This document shows positions 1,639 through 60,599 of a stretch of DNA of 64,000 nucleotides, in pieces. The translations under genes were made by a program, and so were the position numbers. Each line of letters opens with the position of its first letter. Position 1 is the stretch's first letter. The notes under the pieces are model-generated. The model was not told the origin of the DNA, did no database searches, and worked only from the letters and a program-made list of their open reading frames with translations. This DNA is from Escherichia phage 308Ecol101PP. The stretch is taken from the sequence record OR062945.1, one strand, 5' to 3'.

Positions 1639-1864
1639 TTATGAAATCCATCGTCATGAATTTAGTATTGGTGACGGTTATATTGGTGTCGTTGAATGGA
1701 CTGAGAATTACGAGGAATCAACTCCTCGTTTCTTTGGAACAATGTATGTTACCTGTGAGTACGCGCCAGGTGTTGTTATTTATGCAGAACTAGATGAATA
1801 TTTTGCTGATAGAGATGACATGTTAAAATATGTAGAGGACTTCATTCGAAGAGAATACATATGA
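1625..1864 (+). CDS. hypothetical protein (79 aa)
   Basis: ORF track starts at TTG 1610; ATG at 1625 with GAGGA upstream is more plausible; stop overlaps gene 46 start. Confidence 0.45.
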   Translation: MTKTDYEIHRHEFSIGDGYIGVVEWTENYEESTPRFFGTMYVTCEYAPGVVIYAELDEYFADRDDMLKYVEDFIRREYI

Positions 1865-3549
1865 AATCATTTAAATTAAATCGTGTTCGTTATCAAAACA
1901 TCATGTCGGTAGGTGGGAATCCTATTGACATCCAATTAGATAAAGTCCAAAAGACATTAATCACTGGTAAAAATGGCGGTGGTAAATCTACGATGTTAGA
2001 AGCCATTACTTTCGGACTTTTCGGTAAACCATTTCGTGATGTTAAGAAAGGGCAAATCATTAATAGCACGAACAAGAAAGAGCTCTTAGTTGAGCTTTGG
2101 ATGGAATTCGATGGTAAAAAATACTTCATTAAACGTGGCCAAAAGCCCAATATTTTCGAAATCTCCGTTGACGGTGTTCGTCTCGATGAATCTGCCAGCA
2201 GTCGTGACTTCCAAGAAGAATTTGAACGTAGCATCGGAATGTCATACGCGTCTTTTAAACAAATCGTTGTGCTTGGGACGGCAGGGTATACCCCTTTCAT
2301 GGCTCTTAGCACCCCTGCTCGTAGAAAACTTGTCGAAGACCTTTTAGAAGTCGGCACACTCGCCGAAATGGATAAAATCAATAAGTCTCAAGTTCGAGAA
2401 CTTAATTCTCAGGGACAAGTTCTTGATGCCAAGAAAGATGGTATTATCCAACAAATTAAGATTTATAATGAGAATATCGAACGTCAAAAGAAATTATCTG
2501 GTGATAATGTAGCGCGTCTACAGAATATGTATGACGACCTAGCCAAAGAAGCTCGTTCATTAAAAGCAGAAATCGAAGAAGCTAATGAGCGACTACTTAA
2601 TATCGTTCTTGATGAAGACCCTACTGAGGCATTCAACAAGATCGGACAAGAAGCATTCTTGATTAAATCTAAAATCGACTCATATAACAAAGTTATTAAG
2701 ATGTATCATGACGGTGGTACATGTCCTACTTGTGCATCGCAGTTGCACCAGGGTGATCCTATTGTCTCTAAGATTACCGATAAGCTTCACGAATGTAATC
2801 ACTCATTCGAGCAACTTACATGTCACAGAGATAATCTGAGTGTCCTAGTGGACGAATATAGAGCTAATGTTAAGACTAAACAGGACCTTGCATCTGATAT
2901 TCGTACCAAGAAACAAGCAATGATTGCCACTATTGATAAAGCTAAGAAAGTTAAAGCTGCAATAGAGCAAGCCTCAGCAGAATTTATCGACCATGCCGAT
3001 GAGATAGCTTTGCTTCAAAAAGAACTTGATAAAATCATTAAAACAAAATCAGATATCGTTCTTGAAAAATACCATCGTGGTATTATCACAGATATGTTAA
3101 AAGATTCTGGTATTAAAGGTGCTATCATTAAAAAATATGTGCCTCTGTTCAACAAGCAGATTAACCATTATCTTAAAATCATGGAAGCTGATTACGTGTT
3201 TTCTATTGATGAAGAATTCAATGAATCTATAAAATCACGTGGCCGTGAAGAGTTCAGTTATGCTTCATTTAGTCAAGGCGAAAAAGCGCGTATCGATATC
3301 GCATTGTTGTTTACATGGCGAGATATTGCTGAAAAGGTCTCTGGTGTTAGAATCAATACATTAATTATGGACGAAGTCATGGATTCCGCGACTGATTCTG
3401 AAGGTATTAAAGCTATTTCAACAATTCTTAACTCTCTAACCGATGCAAACGTGTTTATAATTAGTCACAGAGACCATGACCCACAAGCTTATGGACAACA
3501 TCTTCAAATGAGCAAAGTTGGACGATTTACTGTAATGACTGTTTCATAA
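1861..3549 (+). CDS. 46: gp46 recombination endonuclease subunit (Rad50/SbcC-like ATPase)
   Basis: 562 aa; Walker A GKNGGGKST near N-terminus, central coiled coil with CPTC zinc hook, C-terminal signature/Walker B (LIMDEV). Confidence 0.95.
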   Translation: MKSFKLNRVRYQNIMSVGGNPIDIQLDKVQKTLITGKNGGGKSTMLEAITFGLFGKPFRDVKKGQIINSTNKKELLVELWMEFDGKKYFIKRGQKPNIFEISVDGVRLDESASSRDFQEEFERSIGMSYASFKQIVVLGTAGYTPFMALSTPARRKLVEDLLEVGTLAEMDKINKSQVRELNSQGQVLDAKKDGIIQQIKIYNENIERQKKLSGDNVARLQNMYDDLAKEARSLKAEIEEANERLLNIVLDEDPTEAFNKIGQEAFLIKSKIDSYNKVIKMYHDGGTCPTCASQLHQGDPIVSKITDKLHECNHSFEQLTCHRDNLSVLVDEYRANVKTKQDLASDIRTKKQAMIATIDKAKKVKAAIEQASAEFIDHADEIALLQKELDKIIKTKSDIVLEKYHRGIITDMLKDSGIKGAIIKKYVPLFNKQINHYLKIMEADYVFSIDEEFNESIKSRGREEFSYASFSQGEKARIDIALLFTWRDIAEKVSGVRINTLIMDEVMDSATDSEGIKAISTILNSLTDANVFIISHRDHDPQAYGQHLQMSKVGRFTVMTVS

Positions 3550-9757: not shown

Positions 9758-10393
9758 ATGAAAACTACTCCTATTACTATCGCTATTGACGCAATCATAA
9801 AACAAGCTTCTTCTTTGGCCGCTATGGCCAAAGTAATTAGTCAAAACCCTGCTCGTTATAATGCTATTCTAGAAACTCTTCGACGCCCAGGACTTAGTAA
9901 TTATGAAAGCCGAGTAATTATTACAGGTGTTGGTAAGAATGCTAATATTGCAACTAAAGCTTCTGAGACATTTGCTTCACTTGGTATCCCGAGTATGTAC
10001 TTGAACACTGGGCATTATTCTCACGGTGATGCAGGATTCATTGCGCCTAATGATGTGTTGATTCATATTAGTCGTTCTGGTAAAACTGAAGAAATGATAG
10101 GCGTGGCTAAGCATCTTAAAATGATTCGTCCGAACGTCAAACAGATTCTGTTGCATTGTAACCCGGACATTCCACAAGAATACGAAGCTCTTTTTGATTA
10201 TACGTTCTGTACAGGCATCGCAGTAGAGGTTGATGAGAATTCTCTGGCTCCGACCATGTCCACTACATTGTTGTTAGCGCTTATCGATACGTTTGCTATC
10301 AACCTTTCGTCTGAACGTGGATTTACCTCTAATGACTTCCTTAAGTTCCACCCTGGTGGTGCACTAGGTGCCATGTTACGAGGCGAACAATGA
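9758..10393 (+). CDS. SIS-domain sugar-phosphate isomerase, KdsD/GutQ-type (arabinose-5-phosphate isomerase-like), no CBS domains
   Basis: 211 aa; motifs TGVGKNANIATKASETFASLG, HGDAG, SRSGKTEE typical of KdsD-type SIS domains; not a T4 gene. Confidence 0.7.
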   Translation: MKTTPITIAIDAIIKQASSLAAMAKVISQNPARYNAILETLRRPGLSNYESRVIITGVGKNANIATKASETFASLGIPSMYLNTGHYSHGDAGFIAPNDVLIHISRSGKTEEMIGVAKHLKMIRPNVKQILLHCNPDIPQEYEALFDYTFCTGIAVEVDENSLAPTMSTTLLLALIDTFAINLSSERGFTSNDFLKFHPGGALGAMLRGEQ

Positions 10394-10533
10394 AAGCAAT
10401 AACAATAGGACTTTTACTATTGATGCTTGTCATGACTATCTACTGGAGCTTAACGGCTCCAGTAATGATTCCGACTCTTATAATCGGATGGATTATGATT
10501 GGACTACAAGCAAAGTATGAATGCTTTAACTAG
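10390..10533 (+). CDS. small hydrophobic membrane peptide (47 aa)
   Basis: ATGA overlap with SIS gene stop; MKAITIGLLLLMLVMTIYWSLTAPVMIPTLIIGWIMIGLQ...; below ORF-track cutoff. Confidence 0.4.
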   Translation: MKAITIGLLLLMLVMTIYWSLTAPVMIPTLIIGWIMIGLQAKYECFN

Positions 10534-10574
10534 AATAGTGTACAATACTCCTACTTACCAATGAGGACCACAAC

Positions 10575-12260
10575 ATGAAAAAAGCTGTTATTCTTGGTGC
10601 TGGACTGGCAACTCGTTTGTATCCAATAACGCATCATATTCCTAAGGTGCTTGTTAACTATAAACAAGACACTATTCTGAGCAATTTGTATACAATTTAT
10701 TCTGACCTTGGCGCAGATGAAATTATTGTAGTAGTTCATTCAAAATTTGCTGAAACTGTTCGAGCTTATTGTGAGCAAGAAGGGTTCAATGTGACTATTC
10801 GTACAGTTGATGAAGCGTATGGTTCTGCTTATGCTCTTGCTAAATTGCACAAAGATTTAGACGGCCATAATGTAATTGTTAACTGGTGTGATATTATTCC
10901 TGATTTTGGTTCGTGGTCTTGGAATGTTAACGCAATCTATGTTAAGGGTGACGAATGTCGATATAATTTCGACGGTGAAAATATCACTAATGTAGGTTCA
11001 ACAGGTGGTAATGTTGTAGGAATTTATCAGTTCAAAGACTGGGAATTCTATATGGGTTCTACTGATGAGGAAATTCATGAATACTGCAAAGGACGTGATT
11101 TCGTAGAATTCCTTTACGGCAGCGCATTCAATAAATCAGAGCTTATGAATCTAATTGATTTAGGTGATATGCCTAAACTTGAAAAAGCTCATGAAGTTCG
11201 TGAACTTAATCGTAGTTTTAATGCAGTTGAAATTGGTGAAGAAACTGTAACTAAATTCGCATTAACCGAACAGGGCCGAGCTCTTCAGAAAGATGAGATT
11301 TCATGGTATCTTAAAGTGAAATCAGATTCAGTTCCTCAGTTAGTTTCTGTTAATGAAAATAACTTTGAAATGGAACGCATTAAAGGTAAGCCGGCATTTG
11401 AATATATTAAATCCAAATCAAGTCTTGCTCGTCCACAAATTGTTGATGCAATTTTAGATGCACTGAAATTCAGCACAGACACTTATTTTGTAAGTCCTGA
11501 AACTGTTCGTCGTGATTTCACTAAAGAATTCTATACTAAAGTTATTGATCGTTGTGAAAGTATTCAACCATTGATTGATTCATTTGGTAAAATCACACAT
11601 GTGAACTACACTAAGATTGGGCGTCTGAAGCCAATGTTGAAACAAGCTTTAGAACACCTTATTCGTTATCATAACCGTTCTCAGGGACAGTACTCTGTTA
11701 TTCATGGTGACCCGAACTTCAGTAATACTATGATTACTGATAATGGTGAAGTCAAGTTTATCGACCCTCGTGGATATTTTGGTGAAACCAAGATTTATGG
11801 GCCAAAATTGTATGATGAAGCTAAAGTGCTTTACGCTGTTTCAGGTTATGATGAATTCAACGCTAATCCGACTTGGGGACAGTTTACTATTGATGAAACA
11901 ACTTGTAATGTGACTATTAACATCAATCCGTTAGTTTACAAATATGGAAAGATGAGTTCGTTTAACGAGTATCATCATTTGGCAGTGGCAATTATCTGGA
12001 TTGCATTAGGTGGTTATTTCAAGAATAATCCACTTAAAGCGGTAGCCGCATATTATAAAGGTATGGAACTTCTGACTAAGCAATTACGTAATATGGGCCG
12101 TGTACTTCAGGACGGCACTATTAGTTATGATGTAGCAGAACCTGTAACGGCTACTCTGATTACAAAAAATCCTGGTAAATGGGTACTAACTGATAAAGAA
12201 ACTGGTGTTTCTTATCGTCCAATCGGTGGCGATATCACTCATCAATGGGAACGAATCTAA
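10575..12260 (+). CDS. bifunctional protein: N-terminal sugar-1-phosphate nucleotidyltransferase (RmlA/GalU-like) fused to C-terminal APH/choline-kinase-like sugar kinase
   Basis: 561 aa; N-terminal GAGLATRLYPIT (RmlA signature G-x-G-T-R-L-x-P-I-T) ; C-terminal HGDPNFSNTMI...IDPRGYFG (Brenner motif plus DxxG of kinase-like phosphotransferases). Confidence 0.7.
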   Translation: MKKAVILGAGLATRLYPITHHIPKVLVNYKQDTILSNLYTIYSDLGADEIIVVVHSKFAETVRAYCEQEGFNVTIRTVDEAYGSAYALAKLHKDLDGHNVIVNWCDIIPDFGSWSWNVNAIYVKGDECRYNFDGENITNVGSTGGNVVGIYQFKDWEFYMGSTDEEIHEYCKGRDFVEFLYGSAFNKSELMNLIDLGDMPKLEKAHEVRELNRSFNAVEIGEETVTKFALTEQGRALQKDEISWYLKVKSDSVPQLVSVNENNFEMERIKGKPAFEYIKSKSSLARPQIVDAILDALKFSTDTYFVSPETVRRDFTKEFYTKVIDRCESIQPLIDSFGKITHVNYTKIGRLKPMLKQALEHLIRYHNRSQGQYSVIHGDPNFSNTMITDNGEVKFIDPRGYFGETKIYGPKLYDEAKVLYAVSGYDEFNANPTWGQFTIDETTCNVTININPLVYKYGKMSSFNEYHHLAVAIIWIALGGYFKNNPLKAVAAYYKGMELLTKQLRNMGRVLQDGTISYDVAEPVTATLITKNPGKWVLTDKETGVSYRPIGGDITHQWERI

Positions 12261-12646
12261 TGCACCGTGTAAAAAACATGCTTAATCTTTGTTTTGATGT
12301 CGATGATTGTATAACAGAGTGGAATAACAATCGTGATTACGTGAACTTCAAACCAGACGTCGAAATGGTGTCTGCCATTAATGCCCTGTATGATGCAGGG
12401 CATACCATAACGCTTTACACTGCTCGCGGTATGAAGTCAGTAGGTCCTGGTCGTATAGCAATTGACATTCTCCCAAGTCTGATTCAGAACTTGGCAAACA
12501 TTGGATTGAAGTACCATAATTTGCTAACACATAAACCAGTATATGATTGGATTATCGACGACAAAGCTATGCGTCCTGACGAATTCAAAGCTCTTATGAA
12601 TAAAGGCGAATTCGAAACATTTAAATCATATAAACCGAATCTATAA
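12260..12646 (+). CDS. small cap-less HAD-superfamily phosphatase-like protein
   Basis: 128 aa from ATG 12260 (TAATG overlap; ORF track starts at 12245); motif I FDVDD, motif II LYTAR, Lys (HKP), motif IV WIIDDK. Confidence 0.55.
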   Translation: MHRVKNMLNLCFDVDDCITEWNNNRDYVNFKPDVEMVSAINALYDAGHTITLYTARGMKSVGPGRIAIDILPSLIQNLANIGLKYHNLLTHKPVYDWIIDDKAMRPDEFKALMNKGEFETFKSYKPNL

Positions 12647-21098: not shown

Positions 21099-21347
21099 AT
21101 GGAATTATTCGTGGCTAGTTCAGTAGCAGTTTTAATCGCAGGTATTGGTTCAATCATCATTTACATGTTGCCTTGGGTAATCGCACTTATTCGTGGCACA
21201 AAAAGCACAACAGCAATCTTCTTTGTATCTTTACTCTTTAACTGGACGATGATTGGTTGGATTGGAACTTTAATTTGGTCTATTGTTGCCGAAAAGAAAT
21301 CTGCTCAGCAGCCTCAACAAGTAATTATTATTCGCGAAAAAGAATAA
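21099..21347 (+). CDS. small integral membrane protein (82 aa, 2-3 predicted TM helices)
   Basis: Hydrophobic stretches VAVLIAGIGSIIIYMLPWVIALI and FFVSLLFNWTMIGWIGTLIWSIVA; SD AGAGGAAA. Confidence 0.55.
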   Translation: MELFVASSVAVLIAGIGSIIIYMLPWVIALIRGTKSTTAIFFVSLLFNWTMIGWIGTLIWSIVAEKKSAQQPQQVIIIREKE

Positions 21348-22357: not shown

Positions 22358-22555
22358 ATGACTACTGCAATTTGCACTGGTTCTAAAATTAGTGTTTTTA
22401 CAAGTTTTGAAGATTATGAAGTTGTTTCAAAACACCAATACCATATTAGCGTAAAAGCTAATGATGGTGTAATTTGGAATATTCCACAGTATGAAGGCAC
22501 TACATATGAAGTCACAGATATAAATGGTGACAAAGCAATCTTTGTAATTGATTAA
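22358..22555 (+). CDS. hypothetical protein (65 aa)
   Basis: ATG after CGAGGTTAAA. Confidence 0.45.
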   Translation: MTTAICTGSKISVFTSFEDYEVVSKHQYHISVKANDGVIWNIPQYEGTTYEVTDINGDKAIFVID

Positions 22556-22574
22556 ATATACTCAGGAGGTACCT

Positions 22575-23042
22575 ATGGGTATTATTAACACTGCAATAGA
22601 TTCTGTTTACGCATATAAGTTTATTCGACTAATGCAAAAACCTTTTACCGAATGGAAAGCATACGAAGCCAAAATCATCGATGAACGTGGAAGTGTTCTT
22701 AAACGTCCTTCTACTCCCGAAGAGAAAGCGGCGTATACACCTTTTCATGCTTCAGTTCGTTCAATGAAGCGAATGATGAGCACTGTTCCAGGTCTTAATG
22801 GAATGGCCTCAATGATGTCTGCCTGGAGTGCTGTAGCTTCACGCTATAACATTACGGAAGAACAGCAGAAAGAAATATTTAAAGAACTCCCTTTATTTGA
22901 GGATATGGTTGCTGGTGATTCAGGTGGCAGCCCTCAAGCTATTGCATCAGGAACAACTACAGGTGCAGTCGTAAATAAAGGTCCAGAACAAATTCCTTCC
23001 AAGAAAAGAAAGCGAATTAAAGTAAATATTAATAAGTTGTGA
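22575..23042 (+). CDS. hypothetical protein (155 aa) with basic C-terminal tail
   Basis: ATG 22575 after strong SD CAGGAGGT; ORF track begins at 22548. Confidence 0.5.
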   Translation: MGIINTAIDSVYAYKFIRLMQKPFTEWKAYEAKIIDERGSVLKRPSTPEEKAAYTPFHASVRSMKRMMSTVPGLNGMASMMSAWSAVASRYNITEEQQKEIFKELPLFEDMVAGDSGGSPQAIASGTTTGAVVNKGPEQIPSKKRKRIKVNINKL

Positions 23043-23081
23043 TATGATGGCCTTATTAATTTAAGGCCTCTGGAGAATACT

Positions 23082-24104
23082 ATGGCTGAATGGATAGATA
23101 ATGAATTTGCTTATCGTGCGTTTTCTCACCTACCTCGTTTTAGACAAATCAATAATTCAAGCACATTTAAATTAACATTTCGTTGTCCAGTTTGTGGCGA
23201 CTCCCAGACAGATGCAATGAAAGCTCGTGGATGGTATTATGGCGGTACTCCTGGTAATGTACATTGCTATAATTGTCAATACCACAATACAATTTCCGGA
23301 TACTTAAAAGAATATGACGAAGAGCTTTATCGCGAATATCTAATGGAAGTTCGTAAAGAAAAAGCTAGAATGGAACCAAAGATTGAAAAGGTTCCTGAAG
23401 CTAAGCCGGAGCCAGAGAAAAAGACTATAAATTCTTTACCGTCTTGTTCTCGTCTGGACAAGCTGCCTGAAGAGCATCCTATTGTGAAATATGTTAAGTC
23501 TCGATGCATTCCTAAAGAATCATGGAACAGATTATGGTTCACATTAGAATGGCCTAAATTGGTCAACAAGATTCAACCTGGTACGTATAAGAAAGAGATT
23601 CCCGAACCACGTTTAGTGATTCCTATTTTTAATAAAGATGGGAAGGCCGAGTCATTCCAAGGGCGTGCACTTCGTAAAGATGCTCCTCAGAAATATATCA
23701 CTATTAAAGCGTTTGAGTCTGCAACAAAAATTTATGGTGTTGAACGTGTTAAGGAAGGAGACGTCTGGGTAATGGAAGGCCCTATTGATAGTTTATTCAT
23801 ACCCAATGCAATCGCTATTACAGGCGGCTCAATAGATTTAGATGTGGTACCATTTAAAGAACGTCGGGTATGGGTAATGGATAATGAACCTAGGCATCCG
23901 GATACTATAGCTCGCATGAAGCGATTAGTTGATGCAGGCGAACGTGTCATGTTCTGGGACCGAGCTCCATGGAGATCAAAGGATGTGAATGATATGGTAA
24001 TGAAAGAAAATGCAACACCACAAGAAATTTTAGAATATATGAAACAGAATATTTCAAGTGGGTTGCATGCTAAAATGAGATTATCTCGTTATTCGAAGAT
24101 TTAA
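23082..24104 (+). CDS. 61: gp61 DNA primase
   Basis: 340 aa; N-terminal zinc ribbon CPVCGD...CYNC, TOPRIM-type central region; T4 gene order and size. Confidence 0.85.
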   Translation: MAEWIDNEFAYRAFSHLPRFRQINNSSTFKLTFRCPVCGDSQTDAMKARGWYYGGTPGNVHCYNCQYHNTISGYLKEYDEELYREYLMEVRKEKARMEPKIEKVPEAKPEPEKKTINSLPSCSRLDKLPEEHPIVKYVKSRCIPKESWNRLWFTLEWPKLVNKIQPGTYKKEIPEPRLVIPIFNKDGKAESFQGRALRKDAPQKYITIKAFESATKIYGVERVKEGDVWVMEGPIDSLFIPNAIAITGGSIDLDVVPFKERRVWVMDNEPRHPDTIARMKRLVDAGERVMFWDRAPWRSKDVNDMVMKENATPQEILEYMKQNISSGLHAKMRLSRYSKI

Positions 24105-24298
24105 ACAAGCCCTATAATAGCAAAGGCCAAATCAACTACAGTATCCAATGGAACAGAAGGAACTATAATACCATTAGCAACTAACAATGGTGCAATCCCG
24201 AAGTTCCATGAAATAATGCCACCTACAACTATTGCGGCGATAGCAGTTTTCTTTTTATTGCCTTTAATAGCGTTTATTAACGATGGAAGTTTAAACAT
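24101..24298 (-). CDS. small membrane protein (65 aa) encoded antisense to the early gene direction
   Basis: Minus-strand ATG preceded by AAGGAG at 6-nt spacing; highly hydrophobic (AIAAIVVGGIISWNFGIAPLLVANGIIVP). Confidence 0.5.
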   Translation of the reverse strand: MFKLPSLINAIKGNKKKTAIAAIVVGGIISWNFGIAPLLVANGIIVPSVPLDTVVDLAFAIIGLV

Positions 24299-24386
24299 AA
24301 TATCTCCTTAGTTACCTATTATTTATTACGCTTTATAAAATTAATGTTAGAATTAACTCTCTTATACTGAATTGAAAGGAAAAATA

Positions 24387-24908
24387 ATGGCACACTTTAA
24401 CGAATGTTCACAACTTATTTCTGGTGTTGATAAAGCAGAAGAAGCTTATTTTAATGCTCTGATTCACGAAGATAAAGACCCACTTCAGGTAATGCTTGAT
24501 ATGCAGAAATCTTTACAGGTTCGTTTGGCAAATGACAAGCCTGAACATAACAAACATCCTGATGAATTGGCCACTGCAGGCGACGTTGTTGATTGGCTGC
24601 GTAATCAGAAAGATTATATTGATGATGAATTCCGTGAACTGCTGACTTCACTTGGTGGTATGAGCAATGGTGAAAAAGCCGCCAGCAGTGTATGGAAGCC
24701 GTGGAAAGCACAACATGCTGAATATCGTAATCGTCGTATCGATGAACTGTCTCCTGAAGACCAGCTTGAAATTAAATTTGAGATGATTGATATTCTGCAC
24801 TTCGTTCTGAACATGTTCCAAGGTCTGGGTCTTTCTGCTGAAGAAATCTTTAAACTGTATTATCTGAAGAATGCTGAAAACTTTGCTCGTCAAGACCGAG
24901 GTTATTAA
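24387..24908 (+). CDS. 56: gp56 dCTPase/dCTP pyrophosphatase (MazG-like)
   Basis: 173 aa from ATG 24387 (ORF track starts earlier at 24372); MAHFNEC..., DEFRELLTSLG, IDILHFVLNMF, C-terminal KNAENFARQDRGY match T4 gp56 as recalled. Confidence 0.85.
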   Translation: MAHFNECSQLISGVDKAEEAYFNALIHEDKDPLQVMLDMQKSLQVRLANDKPEHNKHPDELATAGDVVDWLRNQKDYIDDEFRELLTSLGGMSNGEKAASSVWKPWKAQHAEYRNRRIDELSPEDQLEIKFEMIDILHFVLNMFQGLGLSAEEIFKLYYLKNAENFARQDRGY

Positions 24909-25081
24909 TGGCTCGTTTAAATAAACGTCAGCTTAAGAAAGCTCATAAGAAACGTATTGACCAACTATTTAAAAATGATAACAGTGAGCTTATTTGTAAG
25001 CTCCTGTCTAATCAGCTTCAGCATGTTAGTCAATTATCAGACCATCTACATATGGTTGATTGGGTTGCAAATGAAACTTGA
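24908..25081 (+). CDS. small hypothetical protein (57 aa)
   Basis: TAATG-coupled to gene 56 stop; below ORF-track cutoff. Confidence 0.3.
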   Translation: MARLNKRQLKKAHKKRIDQLFKNDNSELICKLLSNQLQHVSQLSDHLHMVDWVANET

Positions 25082-25295
25082 TTTTTATGCATGGCAAAAA
25101 GCCGGGAGACCGGCTAATAAAGCATTCGGCTCTGATGGATATAATACTAGACTCCACTGGAAATTTAATACTCCAGATGATTATTCTCCGGTAATAATTA
25201 ACGGTGATGTTGTTATATTAGCTAAATTCGGATATTTTATTGTCCCGAAGAAATTCATTATAAATACACCTGTAATTAAACAACAAAGGAGTTAA
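25071..25295 (+). CDS. small hypothetical protein (74 aa)
   Basis: ATG 25071; ORF track alternative begins at 24957; weak SD. Confidence 0.3.
   Translation: MKLDFYAWQKAGRPANKAFGSDGYNTRLHWKFNTPDDYSPVIINGDVVILAKFGYFIVPKKFIINTPVIKQQRS
25259..25266 (+). promoter_or_regulatory. late promoter TATAAATA upstream of soc
   Basis: Exact TATAAATA 32 nt upstream of the soc ATG. Confidence 0.6.
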
Positions 25296-25297
25296 TT

Positions 25298-25534
25298 ATG
25301 GGTGGTTATGTAAACATCAAAACCTTTACGCATCCTGCTGGTGAAGGTAAAGAAGTTAAAGGTATGGAAGTTTCTGTGCCGTTTGAGATTTATTCAAACG
25401 AACATCGGATTGCAGATTCTCATTACCAAATCTTTCCATCAGAAAAGGCAGCTTATTCTACTGTAGTTTCTGATGCAGCTGACTGGAAAACTAAGAACGC
25501 TGCAATGTTTACCCCTACACCAGTAAGTGGTTAA
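25298..25534 (+). CDS. soc: Soc small outer capsid protein
   Basis: 78 aa; YVNIKTF..., AHYQ/SHYQ, FPSEKAAYSTV match T4 Soc as recalled; late promoter upstream, terminator downstream. Confidence 0.8.
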   Translation: MGGYVNIKTFTHPAGEGKEVKGMEVSVPFEIYSNEHRIADSHYQIFPSEKAAYSTVVSDAADWKTKNAAMFTPTPVSG

Positions 25535-48281: not shown

Positions 48282-48941
48282 TTATTTAGCCCTTCCTAGT
48301 ATTCGGATCGCTTGGTTGCATATAGCCGCTAAGCGATCTTCCTCAAGTATATTACTCCCCTTATACCAATACATCGTCACAGTTCCGGCATAGATGTTAT
48401 CCAAATTAAAGTATGGACAACTATACATATAAGAAAGTTCGGCAGTCTTAGATTTTGTAGGCAAAAATGCAAATTCTGATTTAGATGAGAAATGACGGCC
48501 ACTTAAATGAATTATATATTCATTGGCCGTTTTATCCACCGGGAATCCGCCAAGGGACTTTTCAGAAATTGTGCTAGGTAGTTTGCCTTCATAAGCTATA
48601 AGGTCGACAAAATAATTTAAGTTTTTAGGTCTGAAAGAATACACAGCACTAAAATCTGCACCAGATGAGATATGAACTATTTGCAGTTGTTCTAGAGCCG
48701 CAGATTCAAAACGTAAAGCTCGTTCTTTTTGGATTATTTCAGTATAAGTATCATACTTAGCTCTTACATAATAATCCAGCAAAATACTTCCTTTGTACCA
48801 TATTAGTGCCATTAGGAACAAAAGAATAATTACCGCTACTCGGGACATTAAAACCTTTCCGGTAGCGTTATCTTTGAAAATACGATCTAGCAACCCAAAT
48901 AGAATATCACTAAGCGAAAATGATACTTTTGGTGTTGCCAT
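48282..48941 (-). CDS. t: holin T
   Basis: 219 aa; single N-terminal TM helix (VAVIILLFLMALIWY) plus large C-terminal domain; position next to gene 38. Confidence 0.8.
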   Translation of the reverse strand: MATPKVSFSLSDILFGLLDRIFKDNATGKVLMSRVAVIILLFLMALIWYKGSILLDYYVRAKYDTYTEIIQKERALRFESAALEQLQIVHISSGADFSAVYSFRPKNLNYFVDLIAYEGKLPSTISEKSLGGFPVDKTANEYIIHLSGRHFSSKSEFAFLPTKSKTAELSYMYSCPYFNLDNIYAGTVTMYWYKGSNILEEDRLAAICNQAIRILGRAK

Positions 48942-60560: not shown

Positions 60561-60599
60561 GCTTTATTTCTTGTGTGTTAAAATTACTTTATAAATAAA

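Follow-up and report, generated by a model that had tools for sequence, protein, structure and literature searches.

The small open reading frame (ORF) that lies on the minus strand between genes 61 and 56 of Escherichia phage 308Ecol101PP is, on comparative sequence evidence, a real gene, and it is probably a bona fide T-even late gene encoding an inner-membrane microprotein. The window analyzed here is a 64,000-nucleotide stretch of this phage (record OR062945.1). The gene is already known as an annotated and widely conserved hypothetical gene. What the sequence comparisons would add is modest: an assignment to the late class, a predicted topology for the product, a paralogue, and a gap in the reference T4 annotation.

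The 2-kb region around the ORF shares 96-98% identity with over 150 genomes of Mosigvirus, the RB69-like T-even phages; moha and E. coli O157 typing phage 3 are examples. The ORF comprises 65 codons, and an in-frame stop lies only three codons ahead of its ATG. The start codon is preceded by a Shine-Dalgarno site, and a GGAG-type site at comparable spacing is present in all orthologues. The stop codons of the ORF and of the primase gene overlap by 4 nt, and the divergent intergenic region that separates the ORF from gene 56 spans 88 bp with a GC content of 21.6%. In O157 typing phage 3, the nearest genome in RefSeq, the ORF is the sole minus-strand CDS (1 of 84) of an early block of approximately 48 kb, this block being taken as ending at the holin gene in the annotation of that genome. 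The first-pass annotation had described a 65-aa minus-strand ORF within an almost entirely plus-strand early region, situated between genes 61 and 56, read convergently with the primase gene and carrying a strong AAGGAG at ideal spacing; each element of this description agrees with our analysis. The features of the locus and related coordinates are collected in Table 1.

Table 1 Coordinates of the 65-aa ORF, its neighbours and related features (positions refer to the window unless another record or locus is named)
Feature	Position	Strand	Basis or remark
CDS, predicted 65-aa small membrane protein	24101..24298	-	ORF listing; orthologue of RB69ORF029w / 'dam.1'; PHROG_2024
Shine-Dalgarno AAGGAG	24304..24309	-	5-nt spacer to ATG; read directly from sequence
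TTAA common to gene 61 TAA (+) and 65-aa ORF TAA (-)	24101..24104	.	convergent stops
Gene 61, DNA primase, convergent neighbour	23082..24104	+	annotation of near-identical genomes
Gene 56, dCTPase, divergent neighbour	24387..24908	+	annotation of near-identical genomes
T4-type late promoter motif, variant AATAAATA (A at -13)	24320..24327	-	21 nt upstream of ATG
Putative late-mRNA start, leader ~15 nt	24313..24315	-	assumes motif first base at -13 (PMC2988020)
Candidate MotA-type middle promoter for gene 56: GCTTTA, 12 nt, TAGAAT	24330..24353	+	read from sequence
Fifth perfect TATAAATA site	60590..60597	+	no ORF of at least 45 aa starting within 60 nt
82-aa hydrophobic ORF, gene 61.4 position	21099..21347	+	adjoins sp; RefSeq label 'immunity to superinfection' (putative)
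T holin gene	48282..48941	-	own TATAAATA; 24 kb from 65-aa ORF
T4 homologue, 66 aa	NC_000866.4 17738..17938 (L003 4239..4439)	+	52% identity
Type B paralogue ORFs in tandem with A type	L006 1305-1508; L007 2805-3008; L009 473-673; L014, L020 ~1707-1907		
Variable-slot genes, small ORF to gene 56	L022 2795-3445; L023 2783-3439; L003 3347-4126		

Several lines of evidence establish that the coding frame is maintained by selection. The frame is unbroken in all 22 of the A-type loci examined (the A and B types are described below). Pairwise Nei-Gojobori estimates place the dN/dS of the ORF family at 0.06-0.35, with synonymous sites saturated (pS 0.6-0.8) among Mosigvirus, Tequatrovirus and Gaprivervirus. 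Within clades, the variable sites fall mostly on codon positions 3 and 1. The ORF also displays a codon-position gradient in base composition, with GC1/GC2/GC3 of 0.455/0.364/0.258 versus 0.216 in the adjoining intergenic DNA. By these measures, the 65-aa product is under purifying selection. The same gene, identical in location, direction and its 4-nt gene 61 overlap, has been annotated as RB69ORF029w (NP_861719) in RB69, as a 'putative transmembrane protein' in phage 55 and as 'dam.1' in RB9; the product is 100% identical to that of phage JS09 and 97% identical to RB69ORF029w. It matches the profile of PHROG_2024, a family of unknown function, over its entire length (E=1.4e-26, residues 1-65 on profile positions 1-65). 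Neither the records examined nor the searchable literature gives a function, expression class or topology for RB69ORF029w, 'dam.1' or PHROG_2024. Literature searches returned no paper on RB69ORF029w or dam.1, and no relevant paper on T4 ribosome profiling or T4 small ORFs.

Homologues at this site, facing the same way, are present in 10 Tevenvirinae genera. For the A type, tblastn retrieved 692 phage records; the B type and the Jiaodavirus type are carried by 122 and 165 records, respectively. At every locus whose annotation was examined (Mosigvirus, Tequatrovirus, Gaprivervirus, Dhakavirus, Jiaodavirus, Marfavirus, Kanagawavirus, Gelderlandvirus and Moonvirus), the gene is found on the strand opposite to the primase gene, at the 3' end of the latter. 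The 4-nt stop/stop overlap with gene 61 is likewise found in RB69, T4, Dhakavirus, Marfavirus, Moonvirus and Gelderlandvirus and in two of three Kanagawavirus loci; CJ20, L007 and Jiaodavirus retain the ORF and have lost the overlap. The primase locus of Krischvirus GEC-3S contains no homologue. In T4, the 310-bp gap that separates dam from gene 61 contains the homologue, which has a 4-nt overlap with the gene 61 stop and carries AAGGAGG ahead of its ATG. The T4 RefSeq record (NC_000866.4) has no CDS for it in this gap, and the homologue is likewise unannotated in the T2, JS98, JS10, IME08 and PEi20 records. The slot between the small ORF and gene 56 is variable, holding homing endonucleases in Jiaodavirus and Dhakavirus and dam in T4 and being empty in Mosigvirus, while the small ORF always stays at the primase end.

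The family includes two paralogue types, one (A) starting MFKL, MVQKL or MLKLS and the other (B) starting MGT[VL]FYQIW. Both match PHROG_2024, with E-values for the T4, Gaprivervirus and B-type proteins ranging from 3e-20 to 5e-31, and the two types were in addition compared by hhalign. Paralogue identity is 22-25%, with W31, N32, P37 and P47 invariant in all types. Tandem pairs occur in the order A-B in Gaprivervirus-like contigs and B-A in ESCO47 and one metagenomic relative. The B type stands alone in Dhakavirus, Marfavirus and Kanagawavirus phage ZX14, and single-copy forms that are neither A nor B are present in Jiaodavirus, Gelderlandvirus, Moonvirus and Kanagawavirus phages 305 and PEi20. 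The B copy appears truncated in L021, and CJ20 has a 118-nt gap in its place. Because some lineages carry two tandem paralogues, the arrangement hints at oligomers.

Searches for more distant relatives led no further than the T-even phages. An HMM search run exhaustively over 1.84 billion representative proteins returned 7 matches and no wider superfamily; six of these are proteins or fragments of 41-72 aa of T-even-phage type, and the seventh (P0041, 1822 aa, no matched stretch) was judged spurious. Pfam, NCBIfam and PADLOC scans of the 65-aa protein yielded no matches, a PDB profile search gave chance-level matches only (YejA, E=0.09), and the AF2 model, compared with the BFVD folds, recovered family members, with all other matches at E>3.

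The DNA upstream of the ATG of the ORF was inspected for promoter elements. The T4 late promoter consists of TATAAATA in the -10 region (Geiduschek and Kassavetis 2010, PMC2988020). Among the 50 T4 late promoter sites listed in that review, 32 are perfect and 9 carry A at -13, the commonest variant, with the caution that activity in vivo is not established for every variant site (PMC2988020). The motif upstream of the 65-aa ORF, AATAAATA, is of this variant type, and it and the corresponding T4 motif, GATAAATA, are each off the consensus at the first position. Perfect TATAAATA occurs five times in the window, and four of these sites lie 20-31 nt ahead of an ATG, namely those of soc, holin t and two genes of the long-tail-fibre cluster; the 21-nt spacing of AATAAATA falls within this range. 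Both sequences are under-represented in the whole window, with 5 observed versus 7.2 expected for TATAAATA and 3 observed versus 9.8 expected for AATAAATA (at least 3 in 100 of 100 shuffles). A close parallel is soc (25298 +), a late gene in the early region that shares the succession of TATAAATA-type motif, strong Shine-Dalgarno site and ATG. The two differ in that soc has a perfect motif 31 nt upstream and is read with the early genes, whereas the 65-aa ORF has the A(-13) variant and is read against them.

A late-type motif lies 12-23 nt from the ATG of the first gene in 13 of the 13 lineages examined while the flanks diverge, although these upstream regions are homologous and hence are not independent samples of the motif. 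The motif is AATAAATA in the window (21 nt to ATG) and in Tequatrovirus other than T4 (22 nt), and GATAAATA in T4 (21 nt). Gaprivervirus (16 nt), the ESCO47 type (23 nt), Kanagawavirus PEi20 (15 nt) and Jiaodavirus (12 nt) have CATAAATA, and Moonvirus (15 nt) and Gelderlandvirus (14 nt) have ATTAAATA. The perfect TATAAATA is found at four loci from three genera: Dhakavirus (21 nt), Marfavirus (19 nt), Kanagawavirus ZX14 (16 nt) and Kanagawavirus 305 (15 nt). In the tandem pairs, the motif precedes the first gene only and the second gene has a ribosome-binding site alone, as expected for an operon. A promoter scan of positions 22500-25500 detected no sigma-70-type promoter on the strand of the 65-aa ORF. 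Since a conserved late motif is present and no sigma-70-type promoter was found, the ORF would belong to the late rather than the early genes; judged from the conservation of the motif, it is most likely a gp55-dependent late gene. The first-pass annotation had found no clear promoter upstream and had treated the ORF as an element of the early region. The presence of AATAAATA runs counter to the former statement, and the promoter evidence lends no support to the latter.

On the opposite strand, a candidate MotA-type middle promoter for gene 56 stands back to back with the late motif; its two elements and their spacing would fit the MotA-box/-10 consensus of T4 middle promoters. In T4, the gene 56 transcript primes oriA (RefSeq note, NC_000866.4).

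The 3' side of the gene was examined in the same manner. A terminator scan of both strands over positions 22500-25500 identified no intrinsic terminator-like site. The fold of the 171 nt downstream of the ORF on the minus strand was not significant (z=-1.4), and the terminator scan made no call there. A possible hairpin, UGCAACCCAC...GUGGUGUUGCA, followed by UUUUCUUUC, can be noted on the minus strand inside gene 61 past the ORF stop (23940-24100). The Rfam scan produced one chance-level match (mir-1597) inside gene 56. Taken with the promoter assignment, this arrangement suggests the following course of expression. After the onset of DNA replication, host RNA polymerase with gp55 and gp33, activated by the gp45 clamp, would start approximately 6 nt downstream of AATAAATA, and the resulting mRNA would have a leader of about 15 nt carrying AAGGAG. 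Given the overlapping stop codons of the ORF and the primase gene, with no terminator beyond them, the late transcript would run antisense into gene 61, and it would probably end by Rho-dependent termination or decay. For T4 itself, a dRNA-seq preprint counts 150 transcription start sites, of which 22 are antisense (bioRxiv 10.1101/2024.04.04.588121).

The product is strongly hydrophobic, with a GRAVY of 1.24. An AF2 model built from the family alignment (pLDDT 81) contains helices at residues 3-11, 15-41 (27 residues) and 51-62 (12 residues), with a Pro-rich loop at residues 42-50 between the long helix and the C-terminal helix. Across 11 lineages, the net charge before the hydrophobic helix is +1 to +7 and that of the C-terminal part is 0 to -2; in the 65-aa protein, the C-terminal 25 residues are hydrophobic with a net charge of -2. 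On account of this charge distribution, the positive-inside rule predicts a single-pass N-in/C-out inner-membrane protein. Its basic N-terminus (KGNKKK) is predicted to be cytoplasmic, and a predicted transmembrane helix of approximately residues 18-41 would carry the invariant W-N and Pro37. The short acidic amphipathic C-terminal helix (residues 51-62) is predicted to be periplasmic. A two-helix hairpin is a possible alternative topology. The hydropathy and the modelled long helix thus support, as a prediction, the earlier proposal that the ORF encodes a membrane protein.

Alternative explanations of the locus were weighed against the reading of the ORF as a late gene for a membrane microprotein. 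A chance ORF in AT-rich intergenic DNA, spread among records by gene callers, might be suspected from the shortness of the frame and from its absence in the T4, T2 and JS98 reference annotations. The comparative data effectively refute this explanation, which we consider extremely improbable: the frame remains intact with low dN/dS across 10 genera and down to 22-25% identity, the codon positions display a GC gradient, and the Shine-Dalgarno site and the promoter motif are both conserved. It is also conceivable that a late antisense RNA that shuts off or destabilizes the early messages of genes 61 and 56 is the main selected function, with the peptide secondary. The obligatory 4-nt stop/stop overlap and the lack of a terminator would force read-through into gene 61, and for some T4 sites it is documented that the two strands are both transcribed, each at its own time (PMC2988020). 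Against this stands the purifying selection at the amino-acid level, together with the four residues that stay invariant between such divergent paralogues, which shows that the peptide itself is selected. Moreover, the strong Shine-Dalgarno site is conserved everywhere, and the ORF persists in CJ20, L007 and Jiaodavirus though the overlap is lost. An RNA as the principal function is accordingly very unlikely in our estimate, and a dual role of peptide and antisense RNA is possible. With regard to systems of the Hok/TisB kind, the 65-aa peptide is hydrophobic and its gene is antisense to, and overlaps, the 61-56 transcription unit; no dedicated antisense sRNA or Rfam family was found at the locus.

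The remaining explanations concern the kind of membrane protein that is encoded. The first-pass annotation had likened the product to T4 exclusion proteins, which would make it an early or middle superinfection-exclusion or immunity protein such as Imm or Spackle. The likeness holds for size and hydrophobicity, and the ORF lies within the early block only 3 kb from the sp gene and the Imm-labelled gene, so that, like T4 Imm and Spackle, it would be a small T-even envelope protein encoded near gene 61. The likeness does not extend to sequence or profile similarity, with hhalign probabilities of 0.7% versus the Imm-labelled 82-aa protein of the window and 0.2% versus Sp (Spackle). Imm spans the membrane twice and Sp is secreted into the periplasm, so the domain layouts differ as well. 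The ORF is furthermore read against all early and middle transcription, whereas Imm and Sp are encoded on the early strand, and a conserved late-promoter motif stands where a sigma-70-type promoter would be sought. A relative of Imm or Sp was rejected on the negative profile comparison and the opposing strand, and an early or middle exclusion protein of any such kind is quite unlikely; late exclusion is still possible for the 65-aa protein, as a speculation.

A holin, antiholin or other lysis-timing protein was also considered, because the ORF encodes a small membrane protein behind an apparent late promoter, because the UniProt entry of the OE5505 orthologue is labelled 'Holin', and because Gly, Ala and Ser abound in the transmembrane segment. 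Indeed, the protein resembles small holins and pinholins (class II/III) in its size, its small-residue-rich transmembrane helix and its probable late expression, and at least one transmembrane domain is predicted from both hydropathy and the AF2 helix at residues 15-41. The 'Holin' label, however, is an unreviewed one, and the hydrophobic, acidic C-terminus contrasts with the basic, hydrophilic and highly charged C-terminal domain typical of holins. No endolysin gene is adjacent to form a lysis cassette, the neighbours being those for primase and dCTPase, and Pfam, NCBIfam and PHROG give no holin match. The phage, in addition, already has a T holin gene with a late motif of its own, and the T holin of T-even phages is unrelated to the 65-aa protein. 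The holin assignment was rejected on these grounds (charged tail, endolysin neighbour and family match all lacking, T holin already present), and we regard a lysis-timing protein of this class as unlikely.

Elsewhere in the window, just downstream of the DNA polymerase gene (~9758-12646 +), genes annotated as kpsF (arabinose-5-phosphate isomerase), glmU-like and phosphoheptose isomerase are present, which presumably fit the arabinosyl-hydroxymethylcytosine modification described for RB69.

With the late membrane microprotein as the preferred reading, our best guess at its function, offered tentatively and as speculation, is an accessory late role at the envelope, in lysis timing, lysis inhibition or late exclusion. 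It is rather doubtful, though conceivable, that the gene performs an important late function that has gone unnoticed so far, whether in lysis timing or inhibition, in head assembly at one of its membrane steps, or in late exclusion; transcription running on in antisense through the primase/dCTPase unit might then contribute as well to shutting down early replication genes.

Few viruses have been annotated as thoroughly as T4, yet its RefSeq record is without this gene, which is conserved in 10 genera together with a promoter motif and a primase stop overlap despite the missing T4 annotation. As it stands, this is an ordinary hypothetical gene that can be placed, fairly confidently, in the late class and its product in the inner membrane. 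If an effect on lysis timing, exclusion or early-gene shut-off should prove true, the gene would represent a new component of a textbook system.
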